DNA from: Amoebophrya sp. A120
Lineage: Eukaryota > Protista > Dinoflagellata
Direction of reading: 5' to 3'
DNA length: 64,000 nucleotides
NCBI GenBank assembly: GCA_905178155.1
Contig: CAJINV010000002.1
Coordinates: 12,964,480 to 13,028,479 of the forward strand
The notes beneath the pieces were generated by a model. The model had not been told where the DNA came from. It did not search any database and saw nothing but the letters and a program-made list of their open reading frames with translations. Positions 4,501-44,407 of the stretch are shown here, in pieces (position 1 is the stretch's first letter; each line of letters starts with the position of its first letter). The position numbers and the translations under genes were made by a program.

Positions 4501-5762
4501 TCATCGCGCTGTCCTCGAGTCTGTCCCTCCGCGGGCACGTCCGCGTCGGGAGCACCTGCAGTGTCTTTGGCAAGGGCCGCGTCGGCTCCCTCTTCGCGGT
4601 TTCCGTTGTCGGGTTCCAGCACGTGGGCTCCAGCATGTCGCTGCGGCGGCGCGCCGAACTGGGCTCAAGGTTCTCCGTGATCGACCAACTCAACCTGGGA
4701 AGCTGCCTCTCCTTGCGCACCTACTCGCGGCTGGCCTCAGTCGCCTCGGTGATTGGGCGCACGCAGGTGGACCAACTGATTTCGGTGCTGAACTTCGGCG
4801 AATTTGGCTCCTCGGTGTCCCTGAGGCAGTTTGCGCCCGTGGGCAGTCGCGTCAGCGTCGTGGACTTTCTGTCGCTCGGCTCGTCGCTGTCCGTACGGTC
4901 GGTGTCGCGGTTCGGCAGCGCCCTGTCTGTGCTTGATGCGGCGAGCTTGAGCAGCAGCTTGTCCGTCCGCACCTATTTCCGGGCGGGCAGCGCCTTCTCC
5001 ATTCACGGTCTGCAGTTATTGAACAGCGTGAAGAAGATGAGCGTGATCGCGGCCACAACGCTGGGATCGTCGCTGTCGGTGCGCTGCTTCACGAGCTGCG
5101 CAGCCCGCATGTCGATCCTGGAGAACAGCCACTTGGGTTCTTCCCTGTCGCTCCGGCAGTACTGCCGCATTGGCAGCACCATGTCGCTGCACGGCGTCCA
5201 GTTTATCGGCAGCTGCGCGCAGACCTCCATCATGCACAAGGTCTTCCTCGCGTCAAGCATGTCGTTGCGCACCTTTGGGCGGTGCGGGAGCTTCATGAGC
5301 GTGTTGGATAACGTGCACATGGGCTCGTCGCTCTCCGTGCGCTCCCAGATGCGGTTCGGTTCGAACTTCTCGGTGCTGAACTTCGTGCAGATGGGAAGCT
5401 CCCTGTCGGTCCGCAGGATGTGCAAGCTCGGCAGCACGTCTTCCATCTGCTGCTTCGCGTCGATGGGATCGACCCTGAGTCTGCGAAGCACGGTGAAGTG
5501 CGGCTCCCGAACCTCCATCCTGAACATGGTGCACCTCGCGTCCGCTTTGTCCATCCGCAACTTTGTGCGGACCGGCAGCGCATTCTCCGTGCACGGCACC
5601 ACGCGGGTCGGCTCGCTCGTGAAGCTTTCGATCGTGCACATGTTCGAGACGGGGAGCACCTTCTCCGTTCGCGGCATGAACCGATTGGGACAAAACATGT
5701 CTGTGTTCGACTACGTCGCCTTCAGCAGCAACCTCTCCATTCGGCAGTTCGCGCGGTGCGGA
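1543..5762 (+). CDS. First visible exon of the giant repeat protein (internal exon, not the gene start)
   Basis: The repeat frame FGSSFSLRSTLKMGS starts immediately after an introner right end at 1542. The ORF track's TTG start at 1563 falls mid-repeat. Confidence 0.88.
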
Positions 5763-17700: not shown

Positions 17701-20700
17701 GATGTCCCTGCGATCGCAGTGCCGGTTCGGTAGCCGCTTGTCCATCCTGAACTACGGCTGCATGGGAAGTTCGCTTTCCATTCGACAGTACACGCGAATC
17801 GGATCGGGCGTGAGCGTTGAGGGCAACTTGAACGTGCGCGGCTCCGGCATGTTCTCGGTGTTGCAGTGCACGAACTTGGGAAGCTCGTTCTCCCTCCGTG
17901 GGCTCGCCAGATGCAGCAACAACCTCTCGATGCTGAACTTCTGCAACCTAGCCTCCGGTCTTTCGGTACGAACGTATCTGCGAATCGGGTCCTGCTTAAG
18001 CCTGGTGGGTGGCTGCCAGTCCGGCGGCCGCTTGTCTGTGCTGTCGCACGCGGAACTCGGCAGTGGTCTTTCCGTTCGCTCGGTGTGCCGGGTCGGTTCT
18101 CGCGCGTCGGTCCTGGACTGCTTGATGCTCGGCTCCACCTTGAGCATCCGGGCCGCCAGTCGCATTGGCAGCGGTTGTTCGGTGGTCGCGCAAGTGCAGC
18201 TCGGCGCCTCCATGTCGGTTTTGGACTACGTGACCTTCGGCAGCTCTCTGTCCCTCCGGCGTCATTCGCGTTTGGGCGACGGCGTCTCCATCATCAACCA
18301 CGTGAACCTGGGATCCGCGCTCAGCCTGCGTGGCTGCAGCCGGCTCGGGTCCAGTGTGAGTGTCAAGGGCTCCATGAAGTCCGCGGAGAAGCTGTCCATT
18401 CTGCAATTCAGCGGCCTCGGCAGCACCCTGTCTTGCCGCAACGGTGTGCGGCTCGGCGCGCGCTTGTCCATCGTTGATTTCCTGAACCTGGGCAGCTCGC
18501 TTTCCACGCGCGCGAACGTGCGCACCGGCAAGGCCTGCAGCACGCTGGACCACACGACCTTCGGCTCCACGCTGTCCATGCGCAGCCTGGCCCGCTTGGG
18601 ATCCGCAGTCTCGATCCTCGGCTTCTCTTCCATCGGGAGCGCGCTCTCGATCCGGGCCTTCACGCGCACCGCGGGCACGTTGTCGACCGCCGGCATGCTG
18701 GGTTGCGGCTCCATGTACTCTACCAGCGTGATTGGCTGCGCCAGCCTCGGCTCCAGTCTTTCCGTACGCAGCTTTGTGCGGCTCTCCAGCAAGGCGTCGG
18801 TGGTTGACTTCTTCCACCTCGGATCCTCCGTGTCGCTGAGGGACTACGTTCGCATCGGCAGCGGATTGTCGGTGATTGGCACAACGCTTGCGAGTGGGAA
18901 GTCCTTATCCATATTGAACGCCGCCAACTTGGGGAGCACGCTATCGCTCCGGCGAGCAGTCAGGGTTGGAGACAGCCTCTCCGTACTGAGCTTTGTGCAG
19001 ACAGGATCTACACTTTCCCTGCGGGCTGTCTGCCGACTCGGGTCGAGTTTGTCGGTCCAGGGGTCCGGAAGAGCCGCCGAGCAGCTCTCGGTTCTGTCCT
19101 GCGTCCACCTTGGTAGCACGTTCTCACTGCGGGACTCGGGCAGACTCGGGTCGAACATCTCGCTGCTGTCCTTCCTCGCCGTGGGATCATCGATTAGCCT
19201 TCGTAGCTACGCCAGATCGGGGAATGCAATTTCGGTCCTCGACTACGTGAATCTCGGGTCGGCGCTTTCGTTGCGCAGCCACATGAGAACGGGCTCCCTC
19301 GTCTCTGTCCTGGACGCGGCGACCCTCGGCTCCGCTCTCTCAATCCGCTCCTTCTTGCGGTGCGGAAGTGGCTGCAGCGTCCGCGGTCTCGGCGTTGTCG
19401 GCAGCGCACAGACCGAAGCGTTCAGCGTGTGCGGCAGTCTGATCCTGTCCAGCAACCTGTCCCTTCGCCAGTTTGCCCGCGTCGGCGGAGCCATTTCCAC
19501 CCTGCAGTTCACGCACCTGGGAAGCACACTCTCGATGAGATCCGGCACGCGGCTCGCGGGTGACATCAGCGTGCTGCACTACAGCAATCTCGGCAGTGCT
19601 CTGTCCGTAAGAAGCCACGCAAGATCGGGTTCGCGCATGTCCATCCTGGATTTGCTCTCCCTGGGCAGTTCGATGTCGGTGCGCGCAATCGCGCGGTGCG
19701 GCTCAACCGTGTCCGCACACGGACTGACTAGCTGCGGTTCTCTGTCAAAACTGTCGGTGCTCAGCTTCATGCAGCTGGGCTCCTCGCTTTCCGTGCGCAG
19801 CACAGGCCGGTTCGGCAGTTCACTATCGGTGCTCGATTTCCTGACCCTGGGATCCAGTGTAAGCCTTCGCGGAAGCGCAAGATTGCACAGCTCCTTGACC
19901 GTGATTGCTTTCGCGCAGGTGGGAAGCTCTCTTTCCATTCGGTCGACGGCTCACATGGGATCCAGAGCGAGCATCCTGGACTTCACCACCTTCGGGTCGA
20001 CGATCAGTATCCGGCAGCTGTCGCGCCTTGGCAGCTCGCTATCTGTATTAGGCCTTGCCGCCAGTGGCAGTGTCACGTCCGTCTCAGTCGTGGGCTTTGC
20101 GCACCTGGGAAGCACTCTGTCGCTGCGATCGATGGCCAGGCTGCGAGCCAACAGTTCGGTTCTTGACTTCGTCCAGCTCGGATCCTCGCTCAGCGTCCGC
20201 GCAGCGACCAGATTCGGCAGCGGCATGTCGGTTGCCGGCGTTGCCCGAACCGGTGGTGCTCTGATGCTCTCGGTCCTGAACTTCGCCAACTGCGCTAGCA
20301 CGGTCAGTATTCGGGCCATCGCGTCGAAATCGCGGTACGGCATCAGCGTTTTGGACTTCCTGAACCTCGGCAGTGCGGTTTCCTGCCGCAACGTGGCGAA
20401 GCTCGGGTCCTGCATGTCGATCACCGGCCGGGGCCGCATCATGGGCGATGGTCTATCGGTGCTGCAACAAGTCAGCCTTGGCTCCAGCTTGTCTCTGCGT
20501 TCCGTGACCCGCTTCGGTAGCAAGACTTCGATCCTGAGCTTCTTCACGGTTGGGTCCTCCTTCTCGTTGCGTAGCACGACCAGATTCGGCCACCAAATTT
20601 CCGTGCTGGACTTTGTCAACCTGGGCAGCAGCATCAGCGTCCGGAAGATGATTCGCCTGGGAAGCTCCGCGAGCGTGCAAGGCTTGGCGCAGGTGGGTAG

Positions 20701-23700
20701 CCTGTCAAAACTGAGTGTCTTCGACAGCATCACGCTCAGCTCGACGTTGTCTCTCCGCCGCATGGCCTCGTTCGCCGACACCATGTCGATTTTGGACTCG
20801 GTTTCCGTGGGTTCTTCGCTTTCGTTGCGCGCAATCGGGCGCATGGGCTCGGCAATGTCCGTCTCGAAGACCACCGCCTTCAATGACAAGGTGAGCGTTC
20901 TGAATTTCGCCGCTCTGGGTAGCGCACTGTCGGTGCGCGGCTTGAAGACCCGCTGCGAAGGCCGTGCCAGCGTGTTCGACTTCCTGGCCCTGGGCTCTGC
21001 CGTCTCCATCCGGTCGGTCGCCACCCTGGGATCCAGCTTCTCGATCGCGGGCGCGCACGCGCGCTTCGGCGGGTCAGCCTACACTTCCGTGTTGGATTCG
21101 ATCCAACTCGGCAGCTCGATGTCGCTCCGCAGCTTCTGCCGGTTGGGTGCAAACGTCAGTGTCCTGGAATTTGTCCACATCGCGTCGTCGCTGTCGCTCC
21201 GTAGCACCGGGCGCGCCGGGATCAACTTGTCCGTCTTTGATGCGATGTCCACCGGCTCCTCCATTAGCGTGCGCGGAGTCACAAGGATGTCAAGCCGCAT
21301 GTCGGTGTTGGACTGCCTGAAGCTGGGCAGCTCGGTGTCCGTCCGGGCCTTCAGTCGCTTGGGCTCCGGCGTGAGCGCCGTTGGCTTGGTCAGCTGCGGC
21401 AGTACCTTGAAGATGTCGGTGCTGAATTGGTGCACTCTGGGGTCGAGTTTGTCTATCCGGAACACTTCCCGGTTCGGATCGCGCATTTCCGTCCTGGATT
21501 TCCTGAACATCGGATCCAGCCTGTCCCTCCGGTCCCACGTGCCGATCAGCGGTAAAGCTTCGGTGCTGTCCTTCACACACCTCAGTTCCGCGTTGTCGAC
21601 GCGGGCGATCGCGAAACAAGGCTCCAGGTGCTCTGTTCTCAGCTTCCTGCACTTGGGCTCCACGCTCTCGGTCCGCCAATTCGCGTGCACCGGCGTGAGC
21701 CTGACGGTTCGGGGACTCGCGGCAGCGGGCTCTTGCTTCCAGATGTCGGTGATCGATGCGGTCAATCTGGGTAGCGCCTTATCCGTCCGCTCGTTCGTGA
21801 AGATCGGCTCCAGAGCGTCGGTTCTCGATTACCTGAACCTGGGTTCTTCGGTCAGTCTGCGCACATTGAGTCGCATGAGCAGTAGTCTTTCCATCGGCGG
21901 CCCGCAGATGCAGGCGCAGGCGCGCCTGTCGCTGCACAACCAAGTGCACCTGGGCTCGACACTGTCCTTGCGCAACAAGCTTGGTTGCAGCACGACTGCT
22001 TCCGTGCTCGACATGTGCAACCTGGCGTCCTCGCTCAGCCTCCGACAGTACGTGCGGTTGGGTTCGAGCCTCAGCGTTGCGCAGGCGTCCGCCCCCATCG
22101 GCGGGAAACTGTCCGTTTTGTCGTACGCCAACCTGGGAAGTGGCCTTTCCGTGCGTTGCAGCGCACGCTACGGCTCGCGCTGCTCGATTGTGGATCTCTT
22201 CAACCTGGGCAGCTCCATTTCCATCCGCAACTTCTTGAAGTGCGGCAGCAGCCTGTCGGTGAAGGGCGATTTGAACTTGATCGACCCGCTGTCCCTGCTG
22301 GAATTCACGCGTCTGGGCTCTTCTTTCTCCGTCCGGAAGTACGCCAGATTCAGCTCCTCGCTGAGCGTCATGGACAACATCGCCATCGGATCCGGCATCT
22401 CGATTCGTAACTACACGCGTATCGGTTCGGCCTTCTCCATGGTCGGCAAGGGCCGATTCGGAAACAAGATGAGCATCCTGCAGCAGGCGAGCCTCGGGAG
22501 CACATTGTCAGTACGCGCCGTCATTCGCGCGGGCTCCCGGGCCTCAGTTCTGCATTGCCTAGACCTGGGCAGCAGTTTGAGCTTGCGCAGCCAGATGCGG
22601 TTTGGTAGTCACTTCTCCGTGTTGAGCTTCGTGAACTGCGGATCCGACATGAGCATCCGAGCCAAAGGCGGCGTCGGCACCAGGGCGAGCGTGCTGGACT
22701 GCTTCAGTTTGGGCTCCGTTTTGTCGATTCGCGGCTTCGTGCGGGTGGGCTCCAATCTGTCCGCGCACGGCATCGTGCGAACGGTGAGCAGCTGCTTCGC
22801 AGCCTCTGTCCTGCAGGCCGCGACCGTCGGGAGCTCGTTGTCGGTCCGCGCGGCAGCTCGGTTCGGCAGTAAATGTTCTGTCATGGATTTGTTCCGGATG
22901 GGTAGCAGCATCAGTGTTCGCGCGATGACGCGACTAGGCTCCGGTATGTCGGTTGCGGCCCGAGCAGCAGCAAGCGGCAGTGCCAGCGTGATTGCGTACA
23001 TGCACCTGGGCTCCGGCTTGAGTGTGCGTGGTGCAGTCAGACTGGGCAGTCGTGCGAGCGTCGTGAACTTCTTGCACCTGGGCTCCGCACTTTCCGTGCG
23101 GGCGATCAGCCGTGTGGGATCCGGAGTTTCCGTGTGCGGCGCCTGCAACCTCAACAGCAGTGTGTCCGTCTTGAACTTTGCGCAGCTCGGCTCCACGTTC
23201 TCGTTCCGCAACTTTGGGCGCATCAGTAGCCACTGCAGCATTCTCGACGCCGTGACTTGCGGTTCCAGTATCTCCGTCCGACATGGACATTGCAGAGTCG
23301 GTACGAAAATCTCCGTCTTGGACTACTTGCGAATGGGATCCGCGATCTCAGTGCGGTCGATGTCCGCCGCGGGATCGAAGGCCAGCCTAATGGATATGTG
23401 CGCGCTCGGATCAAGTATCTCCGTCCGGGCCTACGTACGGCAGGGAACCGCAACTAGCCTGAAGGGCCTAGCAACGGTTGGATCCCTGCAGAAGATGTCC
23501 GTCATCGGCTGCGTCAACCTGGGCTCTACCCTCTCCCTGCGTTCGATCACAAGGACCGGAAGCCGAGCTAGCGTGCTGGACTTCCTCCACTCGGCCAGCA
23601 GCCTCTCGCTTCGCGCCCTCTCGCGCATCGGCAGCGGACTTTCCGTCGCTTCGTCGCTCGTCTTCGGGTCGTCTCGCATCAGCGTGCTCGACGCCAGCCA

Positions 23701-26700
23701 CCTTGGCAGCGCGCTGTCCTGCCGCGGCATTGTGCGGTGCGGAAGTCGGGTCTCGGTCTTCGATTGCCTGGCTTTGGGATCGACTGTTTCGGTCCGCGCA
23801 GCGTCGCGTCTCGGCTCGGCGGTTTCCGTGGAAAGCAAGTTGCGACTCGGAACCAACCTTTCCGTTCTGAACTTCGTCAACTTCGGCAGCAGCTTCTCCC
23901 TTCGCGCATTCTCGAAGTGCGGGAAGAACCTCAGTGTGCTGGACTTCGTGTTCCTGGGCAGCGCCATCAGTGTCCGGCAGTTCGCTCGCTTCGGCAGCAG
24001 CATCAGCGTGTCCTCGCAGAGTCTCCCGATTCCGGGCCGACTCTCGGTTCTAAACATGGCTTCCCTCGGGAGTTCGCTTTCCGTCCGCAACACCGTCCGC
24101 TGCGGCAGCCGCGCGTCAGTGTTCGACACGTTCGCGCTGGCATCCTCGATGTCGCTGCGCGCGGTGGTCCGACTGGGATCCAACTTGTCTGTCCTGGGCA
24201 CGACGCGCGTCGGCGATGACATCTCGGTTTTGGGCTACGCCCACATGGGCAGCACCTTCTCTGTCCGCGGAATCACCAGGTTTGGCTCACGTGCGAGCAC
24301 ACTCGACTTCGTCGGCGTCGGCAGTTCGCTGTCCCTTCGCGGCTTCAGTCGGGTCGCACTTTCCAGTTCGGTGAAGGGACTCACGCGCATCGGAAGCTGC
24401 TTCCAGGCCAGCGTAGTTAACTGCGTCAGCCTGGGCTCTTCACTATCCGTGAGGCAGATGTGTCGCGTTGGCAGCGCCATCTCGGTGTTGGATTTCACCC
24501 AAGTTGCCTCCACTCTGTCGCTCCGTAGCGCGATCCGCCTCGGTAGCTCCCTCTCCGTGCACAAGTTCACCACGGCGCAAGCCAAGCTTTCCGTGCTGGA
24601 CGCTTCAAACCTCGCGTCTTCGCTCTCCGTGCGGAACTTCTTCGCGGCGGGATCGCGTGCTTCCGTGCTCGACTTCCTTGCGCTCGGTAGCACGGTTTCG
24701 CTCCGCGCGGTCGCTCGCGTGCACAGCAGTGTGAGCATTGTGGGCACAAACGCGGCGGTGAACCCGAGGCTGTCCATCCTGAACATGGCCACGCTCGGCT
24801 CCGCGCTTTCCCTGCGCGGACAGCAAAGAATAGGAAGTTCGTGCTCGGTACTGAACTACCTAAACATGGCGAGTTCCCTGTCGGTCCGCGCTGTGGTTCG
24901 CATGGGCAGCGCCGTTTCGGTTGGCTCCAGCTTGAAGTGCAGCGGGTCGATGTCGGTTTTGGCCGCGACACACTTAAGTTCGGCTCTCTCCGTCCGCGCG
25001 GCGAGCCGCTGCGGCAGCAAACTCTCCGTTTTGGACCTGTTTGCACTGGGATCCGCACTCAGTATCCGCGGTCTCGCGCGCGTCGGGTCCGGGTTCAGCT
25101 GCAACGGAGCGGCTCGCGTCGGCGGCAACGTGTCCGTGATGAAGTTGGCCGCGTTGGGCAGTACGCTTTCCGTTCGGGCGGCGGCAAAGCTCGGTTCCAA
25201 GGCCTCGCTGTTTGACATGCTGGCGTTGGGCTCCACGGTCTCTATCCGCGCCTTCAGCCGGCATGGCTCAGCCATCAGCGTCCGCGGACTCGGTGTCTTC
25301 GGCTCGTGCAGTATGCTCTCAGTGATCAACGCGGTCCATTGCGGCTCCACCTTATCCATCCGAAGCTACGCGCGCCTCGGCAGTTCGCTGTCGGTCGTGC
25401 AGGCCAAGAATTTGAGCAATAAGTGCAGTGTGCTGGATCGGGTGGCGCTGGGTTCGGCTTTGTCGGTGCGTAGCACGACCAGGTTCGGCTCCCGCACCTC
25501 GATCATAGACTACCTGCATATCGGAAGCTCGGTGTCGATTCGGTCGTTCGTGCGGCTGTCCTCCACCGTGTCCGCCGCGGGCATCACAAGGTGCGGCTCG
25601 CTCACGCAGCTGTCGATCATTGATGCGGTGTCCTGCGGAAGCTCCCTCTCGATCCGCGGCATCTCCAGGTGCGGTAGCAACGTCTCGGTGCTCGACTACT
25701 TCCGCATCGGCAGCAGTGTGTCTGTGCGGCAAATGACCAGAATCGGCAGCTGCATGTCCGTCAACGGTGTTGCGCGCACCGGTGTGCACGCTTCCATCCT
25801 GAACTGCGTCGGCATTGGCTCCGCGCTTTCCGTCCGCGGAGTCAGCCGCCTCGGCTCGCGCGTGAGCATCCTGGACTTGATGCACTTGGGCTCGACCTTC
25901 TCAATCCGAAACTTCGTCCGCGTCGGCAGCACACTGTCGGTGAGCAACGTCTCGAGATTGCAGGCCGTCAGCGTCTGTCAGACGCTGGTCTGCGGCTCTG
26001 CACTCTCCGTCCGCGGAAACCTGCGCGTTGGTCTGCGCGCCGACCGCAGTGGCGCCAGTCTGCTGAGCTTCGTCAACCTGGGCTCGCAACTGTCCGTCCG
26101 CACACACGCGCGCGTTGGCAGTCGGGCATCCGTGTTGGACTTCCTGAACCTCGGGAGTGCCCTCAGCGTTCGCGGCGTGGCGCGCCTGTCGAGCTCCCTG
26201 TCGTGTACCGGCGATATCCTGATCTCGCACCGCCTGTCTCTGATTCACTCGATGAACGTTGGGTCCTCGCTTTCGCTCCGCAGCGTCGGGCGGGAACCCT
26301 TCGTCGGTGGCAGAATAAGCATGATGGACCAGTTCCTTCTGGGTAGTTCGATGTCATTGCGCAACCTCGCCCGGTTTGGGGGCTCCCTCTCCGTTCTCAA
26401 CTGTGTGCAGATCGGCTCCACGTTGTCGGTCAGGCAGTACGTGAAGATCGGCAGCAGAGTTTCGTGCGACGGCAACTTCCGCGCGCAAGGCAGCAAGGGC
26501 TTTTCCGTCGTCGGCTATGCACATATCGGTAGCGCGCTGAGTGTCCGGAACCTGAGTCGGGTCAACCTGGGCAAGAAGTTGTCCGTTTTGGACTGCCTCG
26601 CACTCGGAAGCAGCGTAAGCATCCGGGCTTTTGTTCGCGGAACGAACGCCTGCTCCATGAAGGGATGTTTGTCCAGCGTTGGGAGTTGCCTGCAGGTCTC

Positions 26701-29700
26701 AATCCTGAGTCAACTGCAGGTCGGCTCAGCTCTGTCTGTCCGGTCCGTCTCACGGTTCGGCTCTCGCATGTCTGTCCTTGATTGCCTAGCCCTTGGCTCC
26801 GCCATCTCGGTGCGCGACTTTGCGCGGGTGCAGGGAGCTGTTTCAGCACAGAGCGACCTTCGCGGCGTGACGCAACTGAGTGTGCAACAACTCGGACAGA
26901 TCGGAAGTACCTTGTCCGTTCGCACGTACGCACGGTTCGGCTCTCGCATGTCCGTCCTCGACTGCTTGGCCATCGGCAGCACGTTCTCGGTTCGCGCGAT
27001 GGCGCGGTGCGGCAGCGGTGCCTCGATCGTCGGTAGCACAGAACTCAGCCAGAAGATCTCCGTGCTGAACTTCTCGAATCTGGGTTCGTCCCTCTCCATT
27101 CGAAGCACCAGCAGGCTCGGGTCAAAACTGTCTACGGTGGATTGCCTGGCGCTAGCAAGCTCTTTGTCTGTTCGTGCGATTGTTCGACTGGGCGGAGACC
27201 TTTCCACGAGTGGGGCGCAAATCCTGCAAGCGAACGTGTCGCTGCTGAGCCAGACAACGGTTGGCAGCACCCTCTCAATCCGTGCGGCAACGAGATGTGG
27301 CAGCCGGGTCTCAGTGCTCGACTTGTTCCAGCTCGGTTCGTCGTTATCCGTCCGAAATTGCGTCCGCATGGGTTCCGCCCTCTCGGTGACCGGTCGCACC
27401 GCGGTTGGCTCGCTGTACAGCACTTCGGTCGTGCAGTGCACCGCGCTTGGCAGCGCCCTGTCGATCCGCTCGATCGCTCGAGCCGGCTCCCGATGCAGTG
27501 TGGTCGACATGTTCGCGCTCAGCTCCAGCATCTCCCTGCGGCATTTCGCGAAACTCGGGTCCTCGCTCAGCATCGCTGGTTCAAAGGTCATCTTCGGCGC
27601 AGCACGCCTGTCGGTTCTGGATAGCGTCACTCTCGGGTCCAGCCTGAGTCTGCGAAACAAGGGCCGCGTCGGCGATCGCGTATCCGTTCTGGACAAGCTG
27701 ATGTTGGGGAGTTCGCTGTCAGTGCGAGCCTCCGCTCGCTTCGGCAGCTCTCTGTCTGTGAACGGACGCCAACTAGTTGGCGGAAACTGCAGCGTCCTGC
27801 AGTTCACGGCACTCAGCAGCTCATTGTCCATTCGGGCGGTCATCCGGGCCGGTTCGCGCCTTTCGATCCTGGATCTGTGCAACCTCGGATCGTCCATCTC
27901 CCTGCGCGCTGCGGTCCGCATTGGCTCGGGGCTTTCGGCGATCGGCTACACGGCTGTCGGAAGCGTGACCAAACTGTCGCTGGTGCAGCACCTCACCCTG
28001 GGCTCCAGCCTCTCGATAAGAAGTACAGGCACCGGCGGAGGCCGAGCCTCCGTCTTGAACTATTTGCAGCTCGGCTCCAGTGTGTCGGTTCGAAACTACG
28101 CGAAGATGGGCTCCAGTATGTCTGTCGTCGGTGGCGGAAAAGTGGGCAAGCACCTCAGCATTCTGAACTTCACGAACTTCGGCAGCAGCATGTCGTTCCG
28201 CAACCATTGCCGCGTGGGAGGCACCGCGTCGATTCTCAGCTTCATTCAGCTGGGATCCTCCCTGTCAGTGCGACAGTACTTGCGCAGCGGCAGCTCCTGC
28301 AGCATCCTGGGGAGCTGTCGCACCGGCCTGCAGGCCTCCGTATTGAGCTGCGCCGCTCTCGGCAGTGCGCTCTCGGTCCGGAACGCCATGCGGTTGGGTA
28401 GTCGCGTTTCTGTTTTGGACTGCTTGAACCTGGGCTCTGCACTTTCCGTACGCGGCTTCGTGCGATTGGGCAGCAGCTGCAGCACGGTCGGCGTGATGGA
28501 GTTCGGCTCCCTGTACCGTTGCAGCGTCCACGACTTCACGAAATTGGCAAGCACGTTGTCCATCCGCAGCTTCGTCCGGCTCGGCTCCCGGGCCTCGGTG
28601 CTCGATTTCATGACGCTCGGCTCGGGCATGAGCATTCGAACCATGGGCCGAGTGGGATCCGGCGTCTCGGTCTGCGGCGCGCAAGCTCGGGTGCAGTCGC
28701 ACCTGTCGGTGTTAGACCTCACGAACTTGAGCAGCACGCTGTCTCTCCGCGGCGCTTCGCGGTGCGGAAAACAGCTCACGATCCTGCAATTCGCCAATCT
28801 CGCAAGTGCGCTTTCGGTGCGGTCGACTGCAAGAATCGGCTCAAAGACGTCGGTTCTCGACCTGCTTGCGCTTGGCAGCGCGCTGAGTGTACGTGGCATT
28901 ACCAGATGCGGCAGTACTTTGTCGGTCGTGGAACCAACGCGCCTTTCCAGCAAGTTCAGCGCGCTGAACCTGGCACAGCTGGGCAGCTCGCTTTCTTTAC
29001 GCGGCCTCGGCAAGAGTGGCAGCAGATGCTCTGTACTCGATTTCATGTCGCTGGGCAGCGCGGTCTCCGTTCGGTCCTTCGTGCGGTACGGTTCCGCTTT
29101 GTCCATCACCAGCGGCGATCGCATCGGGGCCATCTCGCTGTACACGCGCATCAACTGCGGCAGTGCGCTTTCCGTGCGGGGGGTTACCCGTCTGGGCTCT
29201 CGCGCGTCTGTGCTAAACTGCCTGCACCTGGGGAGCTCCCTCTCTCTCCGCGGCTTCATCAGGTCGGCCTCGGCCACCAGCGCCAAGGGCTTCCTCGCCG
29301 TCGGCAGCATGGGCCGGACGTCCGTGATCGACTTCGTCAACGTCAGCAGCTCGCTCTCAGTCCGCGCGGCCTCGCGCCTGGGAGAACGGTTATCCGTCCT
29401 GGACTTCATGAACCTCGGGTCGTCGGTTTCGCTCCGCGCGGTGGGACGGCTCGGCTCGGCGCTCAGCATTTCTGCAACGCAGACGCGAATCTGCGGCATG
29501 GTATCGGTGACAGAGCAACTGCACAGCGGCTCCGCCCTCAGCCTACGATCATTCGCACGCACGGGCTCTCGCGCCTCTGTTCTGTCCTACGCGCAGTTGG
29601 GATCCGCGCTCTCGATTCGGGCCGCCGGCAGGTGTGGTAGCAAGCTTTCGATCCTCGACCTCTTCAACTGCGGGAGTAGCCTGTCGGTTCGAGGCTTCGC

Positions 29701-32700
29701 GAGACTCGGCAGCAACCTCTCGTGCTTCATCGGTACGCACGCGACCATACCGAATTGGAACAGGAGAACCGATAAAGCCGGAGGAAAGCTATCCGTCGTC
29801 GGATGCACGAACTTCGGTTCGGGCGTGTCTCTGCGACACAAGTGCAAGTTCGGCGGCAGACTTTCCGTGCTCGACTTCACAATCATCGGGTCGTCCCTGA
29901 GCATGCGATCGAAAACCCAGACCGGCAAATGCATCAGCGTGCTCGACTCCGCCTGCTTCGGGTCTGGGCTTTCGCTCCGGTCCTTCGTGCGCGCGCCGAA
30001 GACCGCGTCCTGCCTCGCGTTTGCGACGCTCGGTAGCGCTTTGTCCGTCCGCAGTAAGGTTCGCACCAGCAGCAGGTGCTCCGTGCTCGATTTCGCGAAC
30101 TTCGGATCCACGCTGAGTGTGCGCGGAGCCTGCCGGTTCGGCAGCCGGGCATCGGTGTTGGATTGCCTCAACCTCGGCAGCAGCATCTCGATGCGGGCGT
30201 ACAGCCGGCTGGGTAGCAGCGTCTCCATTGCCTCCAGCGTCATCTTTATCAAATGCAAAAGTGTCTGGGTCTGGAAGAGTGCATGCTTGCCTGGCCTGAC
30301 TCTTAAATCTGTCATGCACGTTACCCACGTTACCCAGAAGGCTCGGCTGAAGTTGGGTTTTAGGATTTTGGCTTCCAAAAATCGACAGGGGTCTGGGCTT
30401 CCAAAATCCTAAAACCCAGTTTGTCATGCAGAAAAATAGGCAACACCTAGGAGCCCAAAAATTTGTCATGCTGTGCCAACACAACTTGTGGCCTCCTCAT
30501 GATAGTACAAGTACGCCACCCAGCATCACAAATTTATTCCAGACCCAGACCTATTCGCAGTTCATAATCTTCAACGGCGCCTCGTACCCGTTGTCAGTCG
30601 TGCAGCAAATCGACCTCGGCAGCACGTTGAGCGTGCGGGGCGCCACCCGGTGCGGTAGCAAACTGTCCGTCCTCGATTGCCTCCACCTTGGCAGCGGCAT
30701 GAGCATCCGCTCCTTCCTCCGCTGCGGTTCTAACGTCTCCGTTGCGGGGGCGCTCGTGTTCGGCTCGATCACACACATCAGCCTGCTGAACCACGTGAAC
30801 CTGGGAAGCACTCTTTCGGTGCGCACCCACTTCCGGTGCGGCAGCCGCGCCTCCGTTCTCGACTACCTCCACGTGGGCGCAAGTCTGTCGGTCCGTAACC
30901 GAGCGCAGATCGGCACCAACACCTCAGTGCTGGAATTGGTGAATCTCGGCAGTTCGGTCTCCCTGCGCGTCTGTACCAAGCTCGGCTCCAGGCTGTCCGT
31001 GCTGAACTTCGTGCACTGTGGGAGCTCGTTGTCCGTCCGTGGAAGGACCACCAGTGGCGCGACCGGACGAATGTCCGTGTTCAACATGTTCGCTCTGGGC
31101 AGCAGCATCTCTGTGCGCGCCGCGACTCGACTGGGCTCCAACCTTTCCCTCGCCGGAAAACCGCTCTTGGGCGACGGCGCGTCGGTGTTGCAGCGAATGA
31201 ACCTCGGATCGGCCCTGAGCCTGAGAAGCACCAGTAGGTTGGGTAGCTGCGCTTCCATCCTGAGCTTCGCCATGCTCGGCTCCGCCTTGTCCATTCGAAA
31301 CTTCGCCCGGTGCGGCAGCTCGCTCTCCGTGCATTCCGTGTGCAAGGCGCTGGGCTCCGTCTCCAAGGTGTCGGTGGTAAACTTCCAGGCTATGGGCAGC
31401 TCGCTTTCCGTCCGCAGTACCGTCCGTCTCGGGTCCAAATGCTCGGTGTGCGACCACTTTGCGCTCGGAAGTACCCTCAGCCTCCGATCCTTCGTGCGGG
31501 CAGATGACCGCGTTTCCGTACTCGGGTATCTGCACCTCGGCAGCTCGCTGTCACTGCGTGCGGCGAGCCGGTTCGGCTCCGGCATGAGCGTTTATGGCGA
31601 AGTGCCGCTCGGCGACAAGTTCTCCGTGCTCAACTTCCAGGGCTTGGGCAGCAGCCTGTCTATCCGCGGCCGGCTGACCAACCACATGCGTGTCAGTGTG
31701 CTCGACTGCCTCACCCTGGGCAGCAGCGTCTCGCTGCGCGCGGTCAGCCGCCTGGGCTCCGGTCTTTCGGTGAAAGGACTCGTGCGCGGGTGCATCGGCA
31801 GCAACCCGTTCATCGGGCTGAGCCACAGCAAGTCCGTGATTGAGCACGTGCACCTCGGCAGCAGTTTATCCGTCCGCGGGTACCTGCGGGCCGGTGAGAA
31901 GCTCAGCGTGCTGGGCTTCGTGCACTGCGCGTCCACCCTGTCCGTGCGGGGCATCAACAAGTTTGGCAGCCGCCTCAGCCTGTTCGACACCCTGGCTCTC
32001 GGCTCCGCGATCAGCCTCCGCCACTTCATGCGGCTGGGCTCCGCGTTGTCCGTCGAAACCGCCGATTTGGATTTGTCCGGCAGCCAGTACACCAAGATCC
32101 GGAAGGACAGCGTCAGCGGCTACCTCTCGGTGGCGCAGCAGGCCTTCATCGGCAGTTCGTTCTCCCTGCGGGGCTTCGCGAAGATGGGCAGTCGGTTGTC
32201 GACGCTCGACTTCATGCTCCTGGGCAGCAGCGTGTCCATCCGAAGCTTCAGCCGCCTGGGTAGTTCGCTCTCAATGCACGCGGGATTGTGCGGCTTCGGT
32301 TCCAGCATTGACAACGGGTCATCGAAAGGATTGTCCATCACGCAGCACATGAACGTCGCGAGTACGCTTTCGCTGCGGGGCGTTGCCTACATGGGTTCCC
32401 GCCACAGCGTGCTCAACTACCTCAACCTCGGGTCCGCTCTGTCGGTCCGAGGTGCGGGGCGGTTCGGCTCGCGGGCCAGCGTGCTCGACTTCCTGATGTG
32501 CGGGTCCACAGTGTCGACTCGTGCCTTTGTGCGGACCGGCAGTTCCTGTTCGGTGGTGGGCAGGGGGCGGCTCCAAGGCGAGCTCTCGCTCCTAGACATG
32601 GTCACGGTCGGCAGCTCGCTCTCCATGCGCAGCTACCTGCGGTTAGAAGGAAAGCTGTCGCTGTACAACACCGGTCGCGTCGGTGGCCGCGCTTCCCTGA

Positions 32701-35700
32701 TGGACATCGCCATGTTGGGAAGTATGCTGTCCCTGCGGTCCATGACCCGGCTTGGCTCCTCGACGTCGCTCTTCAGCAATTGCCGGGTCGCCGGCAACGT
32801 GAGCATTCTCTCGTTCCTCAGCACGGGCAGCTCGCTGTCCGTCCGGGGAGCGATCCGGGCCGGCTCTCGAGCATCCGTGTTCGACTGCCTCGCGCTGGGG
32901 TCGAGCATGTCGCTCAGATCCTTCGTTCGCCTCAACAGCGGCCTGTCTGTGGCGGGACGATTCGGTATTTCTTTTGAAATCATGGTGCTTGTTAATGCCC
33001 TTTTGATACAAAGTAGTGAGCAACCACCTGTGTGATGTTCTGATTTTTCTCCAACAATACCAAAAGGCGTAAAACGTCATAGGTCGCGAGCGCATGATGA
33101 AACTTTTCCCAAAACGTACACAACAGATCTGCCAAGCGTCTCCTCGTTGTCGGTGGTGCAGTGCACGAGCCTCGGGTCCTCCTTGAGCGTCCGAGGATTC
33201 ACCAGGGTATGATATTTTCTATACCATTTTGATTTTTGATGCAATTGGTTTATTTCGAAACCTGAAGACTCAGGCTGAATCTGGCAATAGACGTGATGGT
33301 GATCAAGATCTTCACTATTACGACGATGGACTTTTTTTTCTGGCGGCGGCCACCAGGACTTTTTTTGCTCCGTGGTGTGTGACCACCAGGACTCTTTTTG
33401 CTCCGTGGTGTGTGGCCACCAGGACTTCTCTTGCTGGTGGTGACCACCAGGACTTTTTTTGCTCCGTGGTGACCGCCAGGACTTTTTTTGCTCCGTGGTG
33501 TGTGACCACCAGGACTCTTTTTGCTCCGTGGTGTGTGGCCACCAGGACTTCTCTTGCTGGTGGTGACCACCAGGACTTTTTTTGCTCCGTGGTGTGTGAC
33601 CACCAGGACTTTTTTTTCTGGCGGCGGCCACCAGGACTTCTCTTGCTTTGTGGTGGCCACCAGGACTTCTCTTGCTTTGTGGTGGCCAACAGGACTTCTC
33701 TTGCTGGTGGTGACCACCAGGACTTTTTTTGCTCCGTGGTGTGTGACCACCAGGACTTCTCTTGCTTGAGCGTCCGAGGATTCACAAGGGTATCACGACT
33801 TTTTTTTTGAATTTGATGCAATTGGTTTAAGTAAGTATTTCGAAACCTGAGCCTACTAGCAATAGACGTGATGGCGATCAAGATCTTCACCATTACGACG
33901 ATGTGATAGCAAAACCATCAATGATCAGCATCAGATGTGAAGATAGTGAAACTGCATGCGTTATTCCTCCCTTGACATTCAAAAAAACCAACTATACCAG
34001 CTTTCGTCAAGGGCCAGCGTGCTGGATTACATGCACATTGGTAGCTGCTTGAGCGTCCGGGGCCAAGTTTTGTCCGGTACCAAGCTGCACCGTTCCGCGT
34101 CCGTGATGGACTTCTTGACTCTGGGCAACGCCATGTCGATCCGTTGCTTCACCCACAAGGGCGGCCCGCCACGCGTCTCAGTCTTCGACTTTGTCACGTT
34201 GGGCTCCGCTCTGTCGGTCCGCAGCAGAATCCGGTGCGGATCGTCCTGCTCGGTAACATGATAAAAACGTTACTTTGCTTGATTTTTTTCCTTTTGTTCG
34301 GTTTTATTCTTGCATTACATCAGTTTCGATGTCCTTGCGCATCTCATATCAGCAGAGAATGATTACACGATGAAATGTTAGTTCATCTTACCTCAACCTT
34401 CTACGCCAAAAAACTTTCATCATCCTCAGGTTCTGGATATGGCGAGATTCGGCTCGAGCCTATCGCTCCGGCAAAATGCGCGATTAGGAAGCCGGGTTTC
34501 AGTCATTAACTTCCTAAACCTGGGCTCGTGCCTATCGGTGCGCGCACCTGGCAAGGTACGGTGTAGCGGCAAAGCGTCGGTCCTGAACTTCGTGGCCCTG
34601 GGATCCGGTCTTTCTGTGCGTAGCTTCTCACGACTCGGCAGCACGCTGTCGGCGGCCGGAAACCTCGCAACCGGCAAGTTCTCCGTCTCGCAACAAATGA
34701 CTGCCGGATCCACGCTCTCAGTTCGTGGATTCTCCAGATTTGGTATGATCTACAGTTTCACATAACTTTTCTTTTTCGGTACTTCTACTTCTCGCAGCAC
34801 TTCTAAAGTAAGTAGATTTAAAATTCCAAGAACATGAACTTGTGGGCGAAGATGAAAAAGCCTCCAGTAAGAAATCCGCAACGATTCATCGGAGAAATCA
34901 AACACTACAGGTTCTAGAGCCAGTGTTCTGGACATGTTCCAGCTGGGATCGCAACTCAGCGTACGGGGCTTCGTGCGGTGCAATTCGGCACTGAGCGCCG
35001 TCGGCTTGGTTGCGGCGGGCTCGATTTCCAAGCTGTCCGTCGCGCAGATGACGCACATCGGATCGTACTTTTTTACCATCTGTTTCTTTTTTTTCCTCAT
35101 GATGATGTTGCAAAAAAATAAGACTCTAACCCACCGGGTGCTGTCATGCCTTAAATTCTAAATTCATGTTTGCCATCTTTCCCATAACAACCATTCACAG
35201 GTCCTTGTCGATCCGCGGTGCGATGCGGTGTGGCAGTCGCGCTTCCCTTTTGGATTGTCTGCATCTGGGCTCCACGGTCTCGTTGCGCGCCGTCTGCCGG
35301 CTCGGTAGCAGCGCGTCGGCGTATGGACGATCAAGTGTGCAAAGCACGTGCAGTGTGATGGATTCGACCTTCCTGGGATCCGGAATCAGTCTGCGTTCCT
35401 TCGCCACGATTAGCAGCCGATTCTCCGTGATTGACATGCTCCGAATCGGTATACAAACTGTTTCTTCAACATGTTCTTTGTTTCAAAGACCTTTCCTCGA
35501 TTCTCCGCTCCAATAGCGATCTTGGTGAGTTAGTTCTCTTCGAGCCATTTCCATTTACGATTGCCACTGTATATCAATGCATCCCATCAAAAAACCGCAG
35601 GTTCGTCGGTGTCCCTCCGTGCATTCGGCCGCCTTAGCTCATCGGTGAGTGTGTACCAAGCGCTGCAGTCCGGCGGCAATTGCAGTGTGCTGAAATTTGC

Positions 35701-38347
35701 GACTCTGGCGTCTACTTTGTCCATCCGAGCCGCGGCGCGGCTGGGCAGCCGCGCTAGCGTGCTCGACATGCTCTCCTTGGGTAGCAGCATGTCCGTACGA
35801 GCGGCATCTCGTCTGGGCAGCAGCCTGTCGGTGAACACCCTCCGTTGTACGCAGGTCGGCCAGTGCTCGGTGGTGCAGTACGTGCACTGCGGTTCGTCCC
35901 TGTCGACAAGAAGCATCATGCGGTTCGGCTCTCGAATGAGCCTGTTCGACACCATCGCGCTGGGCTCCGGATTGAGCATCCGCGCATCCACGAGGTAAGT
36001 GCGTGCTTTGAACTTTTAGTGAAAGAAAATGTAAAAGAGCATCGAATGAATCAGAGTGAACCATTCGCATCAGATTGACACCGAGTGGTAGTGTTCTTGT
36101 TGATGGCGCAACTAACTGGAGTTGAGTTTAATGTGATACTAGTATGCGCAACTACTTCTAAGATTCATTTTCTTCTATCACATGAACTACAGGTTGGGCT
36201 CCGCGCTCTCGGTCCACGGAACGGGTGTCGTGGGTGGCGTCAGCATCATCGACCGCGTTGCGTTCGGCTCCTGCCTGAGTCTGCGCGGCATTGCAAGAAT
36301 GGGCTCAAGAGGCTCGGTGATCAACTTCCTGTCCCTCGGCTCGAGCATGTCCGTCCGGTCGTACACGCGACTCGGAAGCTCGCTGTCCATCGGTGCGGCA
36401 CCTGCAGCTGTCGGAGGTAATATTCTTGTTGAAGCCCTCTACTATTTCGCACTGATGCGCATTTTTCTCCTCGTCGAACGACAATGATTTTTCTTCTCCT
36501 TTTTAGTTTGTACGACCCGATAACGCTGACAAAAAAATGACTCACAGGTAAACTCTCCTTGACTTCTGCCCTGCACGTTGGCTCGTCCTTGTCGTTGCGT
36601 GGCAGAGTCAGAATGGGCAGCAGATGCAGCATTCTCAGTCACGTCTCGTTGGGCAGCACCCTATCGGTATTTGATTTTTTCCTTTAGTTCTTTCGCAGTT
36701 GCATCAGCTCGATCACCTTCTGCTGTTGTGCCTGAAATTTATTTTTAGAGAAAACACGAATCGATGATCCACTTTGTTTTCGTGAAAAAACGCAAAATCT
36801 TTTTGTCGCAAATTCCATAACAGCTCCGGACGTTTGGACGAGGACGGATCGGTGATGCGATGTCGATCCTGGACTTCGCAAGCATCGGCAGTGCGCTCTC
36901 CATTCGCAGCTTCTTGCGACTCGGCAGCGCCTTGTCTGTGAAAGGCACCATGCGCACGGACAGCACCTCAGGCACCGCTCGGGTCGTCAGCATCGACGGC
37001 AACGAGATCAAGGCTAATACCGCACTGATGACGGCCAACAACGGTTTAACGGGCACCTCCGGGTTCTCGACGGTTGCAACAGGCGACGAACCATCACTGC
37101 TCTTCAGCCTAACGAGCAACACCGCAATGAGTATAGAGAATTTGATTCATGATTTTCTTTTTGACGTACTGCTGAATATGTCGTCTTTGTCTTTCACCAC
37201 CGAAACTTGAGAAATACGACCAGCTTCTGTTCACAAAAACCATGAACCCATGTTCACAAAAACCATGAACCTCTTCAGGTATGGAATACGATATCGGCAA
37301 CACAAATGCGGTCTTTGGTCACTTGACTGGAACGTGGACCTTCGATAGCGGAAGTATCACCATGTCAGACCGACGCGTGAAGACCGACATTGCACCGCTA
37401 ATGCGCGAACTGATGCAATTGTCACAACAGGTACAAACTCGAAATAGCTGCTTTTTCTTTCACGACTCAAATCGACTGGCGCACTTCGTTTTCGCTTCTT
37501 TCCTACTTACGTTGATGTCATAGGATTGGTGTAGTTGCATTTGCAAATCCAAATGCTGAAGATAGACAATGGATTAGCGAACTATGTTTGAGTGATCTTT
37601 ACGTATCTATCCATACAAAAACGCAAAACACAGTCTCACGCCTCCGGAGCCAGTGACGTTGAGCAGTACAAGAGCGTGAACGCCACCAGCGGCGACCTCG
37701 CCACACTGAACGTGATTAACCAGCTGAGGCCGGTTAGCTACCACTACAAGGCGGCCATGGAGAGTAAGTACAGCCGATTCGGTTTTGTCGCCCAGGAGGT
37801 GCAGGAGGTGCTCCCCGCGCTGGTGGGCACGACGCCCTCGGGCTACAAGGTCCTGAACCTGAAGGACCTGATCTCGGTGCTCACCCTGGGTCTGCAGTCC
37901 CTGGACCGCGTTACGGCGGAAATGGAGGTCGCAATCGACGAGCTCAACGCCAAGGTCGACTACCACGAGGAGGTTTTGACCACCAGAATTTCCGCGGCCG
38001 AAGAAGAACTCTTTGGCGAACTCATTCACCGGCTGCTCCAAGAGGAACAGGTACAATGTTGATATATGCTCTGCTTCTACTAGAAAAGTGAACTATGCCC
38101 GCGAGAGTTGTACGGAAAAATGACAGAATCCGGCCCTTGTTTTTGCTAACCTGTCTTGCATAATACCGATTCAGTTTCTTTGCCAGAAAATGCAATCATC
38201 CCGAAACACACCACGCCACAGATTGAAATCCTGCCGGACCCTGCGATTCGCAAGATCTTGGGTAACGAAACGGCGGAGTGGTATTTCAATGCCTCGGCGA
38301 CGGATTTACGAAATCCGGACCGGCCAACAGCAGCCCTGACTCCATAA
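1543..38347 (+). CDS. Giant (>=~11,200 aa, 5'-incomplete) 12-residue-repeat fibre-like protein with C-terminal Peptidase S74/ICA autocleavage-chaperone domain; multi-exon
   Basis: Manually inferred exons: 1543-5762, 6014-30246, 30572-32964, 33127-33206, 34001-34252, 34430-34742, 34911-35064, 35201-35448, 35601-35994, 36193-36416, 36548-36666, 36824-37130, 37279-37430, 37634-38050, 38222-38347. They sum to 33,632 nt (2 nt partial codon + 11,210 codons including the stop). Junctions keep the frame, and within the repeat region the repeat register (e.g. QFARCG|SSMSV, SSVIF|NGASY, GFTR|LSSRASVLDY, RFG|SRASVLD). No N-terminus lies in the window. Confidence 0.88.
5763..6008. mobile_element. 246-bp TIR introner with 5-bp direct repeat GCGGA (non-canonical intron)
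   Basis: Ends are TATCCAATGCAAATATGTCTGGGTCTGCATGAG ... CTCATCCAGACCCAGACACTTTTGCATTTCATA. GCGGA lies at 5758-5762 and 6009-6013. Removing 251 nt exactly joins the two ORF frames. No GT-AG or GC-AG pair exists in any sliding position of the direct repeat. Confidence 0.9.
6014..30246 (+). CDS. 24.2-kb single exon (~8,080 aa of 12-residue repeats)
   Basis: Stop-free, GC-rich, continuous LGSSLS(L/V)R / SVLDF repeats, bounded on both sides by TIR introners. Confidence 0.93.
30247..30566. mobile_element. 320-bp TIR introner with 5-bp direct repeat ATCTT (non-canonical intron)
   Basis: Ends are TATCAAATGCAAAAGTGTCTGGGTCTGGAA ... TTCCAGACCCAGACCTATTCGCAGTTCATA. ATCTT lies at 30242-30246 and 30567-30571. 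Removing 325 nt restores the frame. Confidence 0.9.
30572..32964 (+). CDS. Third visible exon of the giant repeat protein
   Basis: The repeat frame resumes after the ATCTT direct repeat and ends at the GTATTT donor at 32965. Confidence 0.9.
33127..37130 (+). CDS. Nine short exons carrying the last repeats and the non-repeat neck (TDSTSGTARVVSIDGNEIKANT...)
   Basis: GC-rich repeat-coding blocks alternate with AT-rich GTA...CAG introns, and the phases are compatible at every junction. Confidence 0.85.
33328..33764. repeat. Intronic minisatellite, ~14 variant units of ~29-32 bp (core CCACCAGGACTT)
   Basis: Units such as CCACCAGGACTTTTTTTGCTCCGTGGTGTGTGA and CCACCAGGACTTCTCTTGCTGGTGGTGA alternate inside intron 33207-34000. 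Confidence 0.92.
33765..33903 (+). repeat. Diverged duplicate of the exon-end/intron-start segment 33182-33328
   Basis: CTTGAGCGTCCGAGGATTCAC(C/A)AGGGTAT ... TTTGATGCAATTGGTTTA ... GCAATAGACGTGATGG.GATCAAGATCTTCAC.ATTACGACGATG occurs on both sides of the minisatellite. Confidence 0.88.
37279..38050 (+). CDS. Peptidase S74 / intramolecular chaperone autocleavage (ICA) domain plus coiled coil, two exons
   Basis: Motifs ITM-SDRRVKTDIAPL (Ser codon 37365, Lys codon 37380), INQLRPVSYHYK, RFGFVAQEVQEVLPALV and LNLKDLISVLTLGLQSL followed by a heptad-like helix. Recognised by eye as the motif order of endosialidase/tail-fibre chaperones and the MYRF ICA domain. Confidence 0.85.
38222..38347 (+). CDS. 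Probable terminal exon (IEILPDPAIRK...AALTP*)
   Basis: Phase-0 donor at 38051. The A/C-rich acceptor CCACGCCACAG ending at 38221 matches the other acceptors. Alternative AGs at 38174 and 38186 give a different open frame and cannot be excluded. Confidence 0.55.
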   Translation: MEILPDPAIRKILGNETAEWYFNASATDLRNPDRPTAALTP

Positions 38348-44212: not shown

Positions 44213-44307
44213 TGGGCGGGCTTCTTTGTTTGGGCCAGCCTGCTTCCTCGCGCGCGCGCTTGGGCGCACCGGCAAGCTGTTGAAGCCCCGCAAAAATTCA
44301 GAAGCGG

Positions 44308-44407
44308 NNNNNNNNNNNNNNNNNNNNNNNNNNNNNNNNNNNNNNNNNNNNNNNNNNNNNNNNNNNNNNNNNNNNNNNNNNNNNNNNNNNNNNNNNNNNN
44401 NNNNNNN
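44308..44407. other. Assembly gap (100 N) inside the satellite
   Basis: Run of 100 N with satellite sequence on both sides; true array length unknown. Confidence 0.99.

Follow-up and report, generated by a model that had tools for sequence, protein, structure and literature searches.

A 64,000-nucleotide stretch of the genome of the dinoflagellate Amoebophrya sp. A120 (contig CAJINV010000002.1, positions 12,964,480 to 13,028,479 of the forward strand; hereafter the window) encodes an S74/ICA domain, a module shared with phage tail fibres. The domain is the C-terminal end of a protein of at least 11,209 amino acids built of GSxxSx7 repeats. A preliminary description of the same DNA had treated the domain as the unit of interest and omitted the giant TLP-12-type repeat protein that it ends. 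We consider it likely that this chain of more than 11,000 residues trimerises, that its S74/ICA domain seeds a triple beta-helix of the TLP-12 type, and that the domain, as predicted, cuts itself at the Ser of the sequence SDRRVK. The ICA in a spliced nuclear gene other than MYRF is real, yet the protein family was already published in a 2025 preprint; what is added here is a variable insertion present across the family, the conserved spacing of the catalytic dyad, a single clade, sequon-rich tails, and a trimer model.

The Pfam profile Peptidase_S74 (PF13884) matches both sides of the intron that splits the domain. The first exon aligns with profile positions 1-23 (15.6 bits, E 0.021, below the cut-off), and the second exon by itself aligns with positions 15-57 at 43.9 bits against a cut-off of 22 (E 2.9e-11). 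The gene and its parts are on the forward strand. The family motif HLxGTW (37320..37337) stands directly ahead of the predicted cleavage site; in 74 aligned relatives its G215 is invariant and L213 and W217 are kept in at least 90%. It is followed by S-D-R-R-V-K (37365..37382), assigned from the sequence and the Pfam match to positions 1-23, with the predicted catalytic Ser at 37365-37367 and Lys at 37380-37382. The second half of the core, LRPVSY ... SKYSRFGFVAQE ... (37724..37858), carries the stronger Pfam match and also matches 14 PHROG families, of which 13 are classed as tail. A predicted trimerising coiled coil (37859..38050) completes the domain; it is a long helix with pLDDT above 90 in a relative and makes heptad contacts in the trimer model.

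The S-x4-K spacing proposed for the catalytic pair was found in frame here and throughout 98 relatives, so that the dyad loss named beforehand as a refutation was not encountered. S-D-x-x-x-K after LxGxW was recognised by pattern in 96 of the 98, and the two misses keep the spacing on inspection, one having been mis-anchored (SDKRLK) and the other reading S-G-R-E-V-K. S229, D230, and K234 are invariant in all 74 aligned relatives. In MYRF, cleavage is abolished by S587A or K592A, a pair that corresponds to S911/K916 of endoNF (PMC8326128), and by analogy with these mutants we infer that the SDRRVK dyad is catalytically active.

The in-window part of the gene (1545..38347) comprises 15 exons totalling 33,630 nt and encodes 11,209 amino acids plus a stop codon; it forms a single open frame after removal of 14 introns, and its start lies upstream of the window. 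Thirteen of the introns are RNA-supported (12 by joints and 33207-34000 by matching loose ends), and the remaining one, 5758-6008, was placed by inference. The three introns drawn around the domain from the letters alone proved exact. All have GT..AG borders: 37131-37278 (148 nt, phase 1, upstream of the domain), 37431-37633 (203 nt, phase 0, inside the insertion), and 38051-38221 (171 nt, phase 0, after the coiled coil). RNA run X15, which contributes 6,768 raw reads on 33,900-38,700, joins across them with 140+146, 188+190, and 112+163 reads (286, 378, and 275 in total); two further reads from run X14 cross the third, and X15 depth is zero across 37442-37602, inside the second. The contig run X6 has the same three joints, and run X1 contains this stretch whole, with the introns still in it. 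After splicing, the frame runs ...HLTGTW...SDRRVK-TDIAPL-[37 aa]-INQ-LRPVSY...GFVAQE... and stops at 38345-38347, which places the SDRRVK and RPVSY exons in frame; out-of-frame splicing between them was not found. The view that introns both flank and interrupt the domain holds in that all three are real, but only 37431-37633 is inside the S74 domain, since the first is 28 codons ahead of the Ser and the third is downstream of the coiled coil. The last coding exon (38222..38347) encodes a 41-residue tail with two N-glycosylation sequons, and RNA depth runs on to 38,700, with a 3′ untranslated region (UTR) implied to about 39,960.

The upstream part of the transcript is covered by run X3, guessed to be RNA and containing spliced joints, in which a 30,715-nt contig with an even depth of about 294 extends across 13,301-33,206. 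This contig spans the 24-kb exon and the next two introns spliced, and the 4,320 nt left over agree with the 3′ exons followed by a UTR of about 1.6 kb. The introns fall into two types. A family of introner-like introns with shared inverted-repeat arms (three members) interrupts the 5′ part, while each of the 12 introns from 32,965 onwards is of the GT-AG type. The first member, 30242..30566, is non-canonical, with a 5-nt direct repeat and ends AT..TA, and is skipped in X3 and X6 contigs; the second, 5758..6008, is deduced from its visible arms and the frame restored on its removal. For the third, an arm at about 1500-1544 (near 1,520), the window contains no partner, and the gene must therefore continue upstream. 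Introner-like introns with inverted and direct repeats fit what has been described of Amoebophrya (PMC7789003). The distribution of introns is steeply graded, a single 24,233-nt coding exon (6009-30241) standing against 12 introns in the last 5.4 kb of the gene. Within the 794-nt intron 33207-34000 are a tandem array (33/123 bp) and a second version, 76% identical, of the end of the exon before it and of the donor region (33,182-33,903). Minority variants occur in X15 at 36,964 (C>T, 43 of 307 reads) and 37,803 (A>T, 91 of 524) and are absent from X1 and X6; they could represent an allele, a paralogue, or amplification error. Contamination, which the preliminary description had already rejected, and a pseudogene are both ruled out by the spliced reads, the open frame, and the matching GC content at third codon positions (0.78 in the S74 domain and 0.80 in the repeats), as expected for a nuclear, spliced, transcribed gene.

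Nearly everything ahead of the domain is a stalk of about 879 GSxxSx7 dodecamers of the TLP-12 type (1545..36950, the end being approximate), which includes the 24,233-nt exon and was delimited by motif counts and spacing. The consensus is G-S-x-L-S-V-R/L-x-F-x-R-L. GSxxS motifs number 551, compared with a mean of 50 and a maximum of 67 in 200 shuffles, and 435 of the 550 spacings between them are multiples of 12. The 879 units make up 96.7% of 10,907 residues, with Gly at position 1 in 73%, Ser or Thr at position 2 in 76%, and Ser at position 5 in 99%. Two relatives, P0018 and P0023, are named LpxA-type hexapeptide enzymes by their source; we rejected this assignment because the matches are weak (E 0.024 or worse) and the period is 12/24. 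PHROG families 36281 and 5353 match the repeats (E 1e-10 to 1e-16). A viral origin of the stalk was not accepted on these matches, as 36281 also matches one of 14 control genomes and a column test was borderline. A tblastn search against phages gave no match, and none of 150 parsed viral and bacterial open reading frames had more than one 12-spaced motif.

The repeat logo matches G1, S2, and S5 of TLP-12. A CryoSeek preprint (10.1101/2025.09.30.679562) describes TLP-12 as a triple beta-helix with C3 symmetry, its dodecamers bearing glycans at positions 2 and 5. The preprint connects the motif with Amoebophrya proteins about 20,000 residues long and counts about 150 candidates in six alveolate species or strains, none of them characterised. 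One entry, A0A8J1ZHD7 (19,853 residues, 1,263 repeats), ends in an ICA for which a folding role is proposed; it shares with our gene the GSxxSx7 dodecamers with G1, S2, and S5, the giant length, and the C-terminal ICA, and our gene may be that very entry or a paralogue. In the main text of the preprint the words 'intron' and 'insertion' occur in the references only and 'flagell' and 'horizontal' do not occur, while supplementary Fig. S5F-H may show the insertion. A search by title and the start of the abstract, covering literature other than subscription journals, returned no other paper on this family. Our own search of longer proteins gave five matches among 900 candidates, of which the only one named by organism was from Amoebophrya A25 (56% identical), and the taxonomic breadth beyond A25 rests on the TLP-12 preprint (bioRxiv 2025.09.30.679562). 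The representative search gave 1,788 matches at E ≤0.001, and relatives were analysed from the best 150. Features common to many of them are LxGxW ahead of the Ser, motifs resembling SKYSRFGF and, in proteins of sufficient length, repeats upstream; a motif of the last exon recurs in P0014, P0016, and P0186. Two proteins of a 486-kb A25 contig, P0002 and P0185, have near-identical S74 C-termini nine gene numbers apart, reflecting local duplication or an assembly artefact.

The segment between KTDIAPL and INQLRPVSY is 37 residues long in the spliced frame, as had been noted, and an insertion of about 30 residues relative to the short phage and bacterial linker was borne out by measurement. The distance from the Ser to GFIAQE (GFVAQ here) is 71 residues in the window protein and has a median of 75.5 in 96 family proteins (range 45-127), compared with medians of 40 in viral loci (78 of 80 parsed, nine above 55) and 40 in bacterial loci (72 of 80 parsed, none above 55). 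The parse failed for 53 of the 188 proteins and for 13 of the 53 metagenome loci, and for each locus it used the longest frame containing the motifs, which is not always the matched one. The linker from the Lys to xRP is 20-102 residues in 98 family proteins (median 52, 46 here) and is 25 or fewer in only four. Its ends are conserved (I-x-P-L-Y-x-x-L, and L-L-R-x ahead of LRP), and its middle is rich in Ser, Ala, Gly, and Thr and variable in length and sequence. The first 10 residues (37401..37430) form a predicted added helix, found at the matching place in models of two relatives that draw the insertion as helix, loop, and helix. The last 27 (37634..37714) form a predicted variable loop leading into the canonical helix; the corresponding residues 244-269 of the relative P0001 show no confident inter-chain contact. 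The insertion is best read from these models as a tolerated surface loop. Being spliced in frame and present across the family, it cannot be a retained piece of intron, and it would be older than the intron within it. It is a trait of the whole family and no peculiarity of this gene. Its excess of sequons is marginal (29 compared with 21.6, with 40 of 1,000 shuffles as high).

Structure prediction was carried out on relatives. A trimer of P0001 (residues 62-390) scored 0.76, compared with 0.00 for the best of three controls, with pLDDT of at least 72 and runs that agree in at least 94% of contacts. When the score was calibrated, 21 of 30 solved homo-pairs came up to the mark and none of 23 single chains did (17 of 29 and 0 of 30 for eukaryotes). 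Inter-chain contacts cover the repeats at 74-165 almost without gaps, residues 225-240, and the coiled coil, and there are none at 244-269. The models thus predict an S74/ICA homotrimer in which the insertion is an added helix and a loose surface loop. A fold search with a relative's model matched, among ICA structures, 7DC3 (E 5e-5), 3GW6 (0.013), and 4UW8 (0.1), and 263 viral models matched at E ≤0.001.

The pathway that we favour starts with entry of the chain into the endoplasmic reticulum (ER) and its secretion, as suggested by an excess of sequons in 67 tails (119 compared with 50.4 ± 6.0, with none of 1,000 shuffles as high; the proteins are not mutually independent). Once translation ends, the C-termini would trimerise through the coiled coil, and the ICA would start the folding of the three chains, which would zip up towards the N-terminus into a triple beta-helix. 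The ICA would then cut itself off at the Ser of SDRRVK, releasing a piece of about 200 residues. O-glycans could be added to serines 2 and 5 of the repeats, by comparison with the TLP-12 structure; what is present here are the acceptor serines. The predicted product is a glycan-coated extracellular fibre.

Several points count against this pathway. For self-cleavage a further basic residue is required as a helper, Arg897 in endoNF and possibly Lys671 in MYRF (PMC8326128), and the residues assigned in this protein are the Ser and the Lys; cleavage, glycosylation, and the location of the fibre are predictions. P0001 is a stand-in that is 59% identical, was folded without an alignment, and as three copies falls outside the calibration. 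Its pass may reflect the model's memory of solved trimers of like kind, and only one of seven eukaryotic cases without an older relative passed. A sequence search for a solved TLP-12 chain found none. In a single-chain model the repeats came out as strands of 9 residues, and a fold search with a 452-residue model returned nothing at E 0.001. The N-terminus, and hence any signal peptide, lies outside the window. TLP-12 itself was sampled from a freshwater pond and is tied to Amoebophrya by its motif only (10.1101/2025.09.30.679562). Finally, X15 raw reads give out by about 32 kb, with none further upstream, and X16 lacks reads at 32.6-33.3 kb, so a full-length mRNA rests on the assembled contigs.

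The last point could be taken to mean that the S74 exons are expressed mainly in a shorter transcript that starts at 32-36 kb and encodes a short fibre, the giant exon being rarely joined. In its favour, X15 depth drops away from about 500 over the domain, template-switch ends are concentrated at 32,551 and 36,248, and X16 reads begin at about 35.7 kb. We regard this as very improbable. One spliced X3 contig has flat depth across 13.3-33.2 kb, the frame stays open for 11,209 codons, and the listed loose ends include no spliced leader; moreover, cDNA made from an mRNA of more than 35 kb is biased towards the 3′ end, which explains the decay, and the upstream loss of depth in X15 is read as such a bias. 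X14, from the same study as X15, has three reads compared with 6,768, a contrast on which no claim of stage-specific expression is based, as the organism may be absent from X14. More generally, the near-empty X14, the fading of X15 to zero near 32 kb, and the start of X16 reads at about 35.7 kb may reflect 3′ bias, sample content, or a shorter transcript. A different objection concerns the cut itself: the ICA might trimerise and guide folding yet stay uncut as the base or tip of the fibre, with the insertion and tail as a docking surface. The family keeps long tails and motifs of its own (SKYSRFGF and the added helix), and the recurrence of the last-exon motif in three relatives is also in keeping with a retained domain. 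This seems quite unlikely to us, as the three dyad positions are invariant even though most of the 74 relatives were found with a query lacking the dyad, and the middle of the insertion is conserved in neither length nor sequence.

The last alternative touches origin only and is compatible with a self-cleaving chaperone. The domain could descend by shared eukaryotic ancestry with the ICA of MYRF and MrfA and have been fused later to the repeat stalk, with no independent capture. The MYRF ICA 7DC3 is the top PDB fold match, and no viral or bacterial sister is supported. Such descent is nevertheless unlikely, because the family profile scores the phage fibres 6F45 (4e-10) and 8JOV (6.4e-7) far above MYRF (0.13), all 72 aligned proteins so compared match Peptidase_S74 with no MYRF- or Ndt80-named family among the 10 listed, and viral models outscore 7DC3 (in a different library). 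With MYRF and Dictyostelium MrfA the protein shares a eukaryotic setting, the Ser-Lys spacing, and a similar predicted fold. It differs in the weak profile match, in having no Ndt80-like domain (Pfam, four upstream pieces and the 102-residue exon before the domain; about 10,900 residues of repeats precede the ICA), and in having no transmembrane segment after the ICA (the highest 19-residue hydropathy in the last 330 residues is 1.3, upstream of the domain). The statement that the gene is not MYRF therefore stands. With the ICA of phage tail fibres and tailspikes (K1F endoNF 3GW6, T5 pb1 4UW8, 6F45) it shares the S-D-x-R-x-K start, LxPV, GFIAQE, the coiled coil, and the placement after a beta-rich trimeric stalk, and what sets it apart is a linker about 30 residues longer, an intron, a tail that continues beyond the coiled coil, a stalk of much greater length, and a eukaryotic secretory setting.

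The phylogeny that had been proposed as a check was made with viral and bacterial outgroups, without MYRF or MrfA; every outgroup had been selected for its resemblance to the family. In a careful tree (56 rows, 113 columns, bootstrap not fully settled) the 18 family rows form one branch (99/99), within which the window protein adjoins A25 with weak support, and no sister to the family clade is supported. In a larger tree (141 rows and 112 columns, from a subsample of 326 parsed domains), 35 family rows and four family proteins missed by the pattern group together in a single branch, free of viral and bacterial rows (SH-aLRT 97). The trees support a domain that is old in the lineage. Its source was probably a virus or a bacterium, beyond the power of the tree to name, and its acquisition a single early event. 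Of the original idea of an old virus- or bacterium-derived module, the age and the kept dyad have held up, but no viral or bacterial group is supported as sister. The introns, which had been taken as a sign of age and domestication, no longer serve as one: in relatives the domain seems to be interrupted elsewhere or to be uninterrupted. In P0186 a single called gene runs through the domain on a contig of 91 kb (assumed to be DNA). The open frames P0006 and P0007 start within the domain, and the end of P0006 appears, from frame ends only, to match the third intron.

One further protein, P0184 (2,783 residues), resembles this gene in its 12-residue repeats with L-S-V in the same register and its C-terminal S74 domain, and is unlike it in lacking G1 and S2, in its short linker, and in an S74 domain outside the family clade. 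That domain groups with the giant-virus bin locus L087 (100/96) and is not sister to the family; the repeat similarity past the three anchor columns is not significant (p 0.055). P0184 is probably giant-viral, and L087 has three tandem S74-ended genes. Scans of viral contigs with P0184 gave no match, and a scan with P0159 gave eight S74-only loci.

Downstream of the gene, a 358-bp satellite array occupies 40,300-45,400, with about 5.6 copies at 99% in 40,897-42,886, and continues past a 100-base N gap (44,308-44,407). A 1,326-bp element inserted in it (42,887-44,212) has 21-bp perfect terminal inverted repeats, with a weaker match beyond, and an apparent 6-bp target duplication; it looks like a non-autonomous DNA transposon. 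A 486-codon open frame at 46,953-48,410 (+) had no convincing Pfam match.

The most likely site of the fibre is a cell-surface filament. At the TLP-12 rise, the 879 repeats correspond to a fibre of 0.68-0.84 micrometres from the in-window part alone. Flagellar hairs are about 1-2 micrometres long. The rise is given as 9.6 angstrom per repeat, and also as 18 repeats in 14 nm (10.1101/2025.09.30.679562). A flagellar hair is our leading guess, held at somewhat less than even confidence, because Amoebophrya spores have a hairy transverse flagellum (10.1101/2025.04.10.648098) and Psammosa has hair-like fibres between its nuclear membranes (PMC3377698); an extrusome thread, attachment filament, or mucus fibre may be the site instead. 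A bolder and rather doubtful proposal is that the flagellar hairs of the dinoflagellate lineage are single-gene fibres. Each would consist of three chains of 10,000-20,000 residues whose length is set by repeat count, and a viral chaperone able to cleave itself would zip them together starting at the C-terminus; the gene for the entire fibre, both the dodecamer stalk and the ICA, may have been captured from a giant virus. If true, this would give TLP-12 a cellular identity and would represent a domestication of the ICA independent of MYRF. Once the family is known, the intron and insertion are ordinary features, and the remaining interest lies in the nature of the fibre. The gene offers a handle on it, a chaperone fragment of about 200 residues with a defined cut site, in a cultured parasite of bloom-forming algae, and the case bears on how a cell folds an intertwined trimer of chains of more than 11,000 residues.

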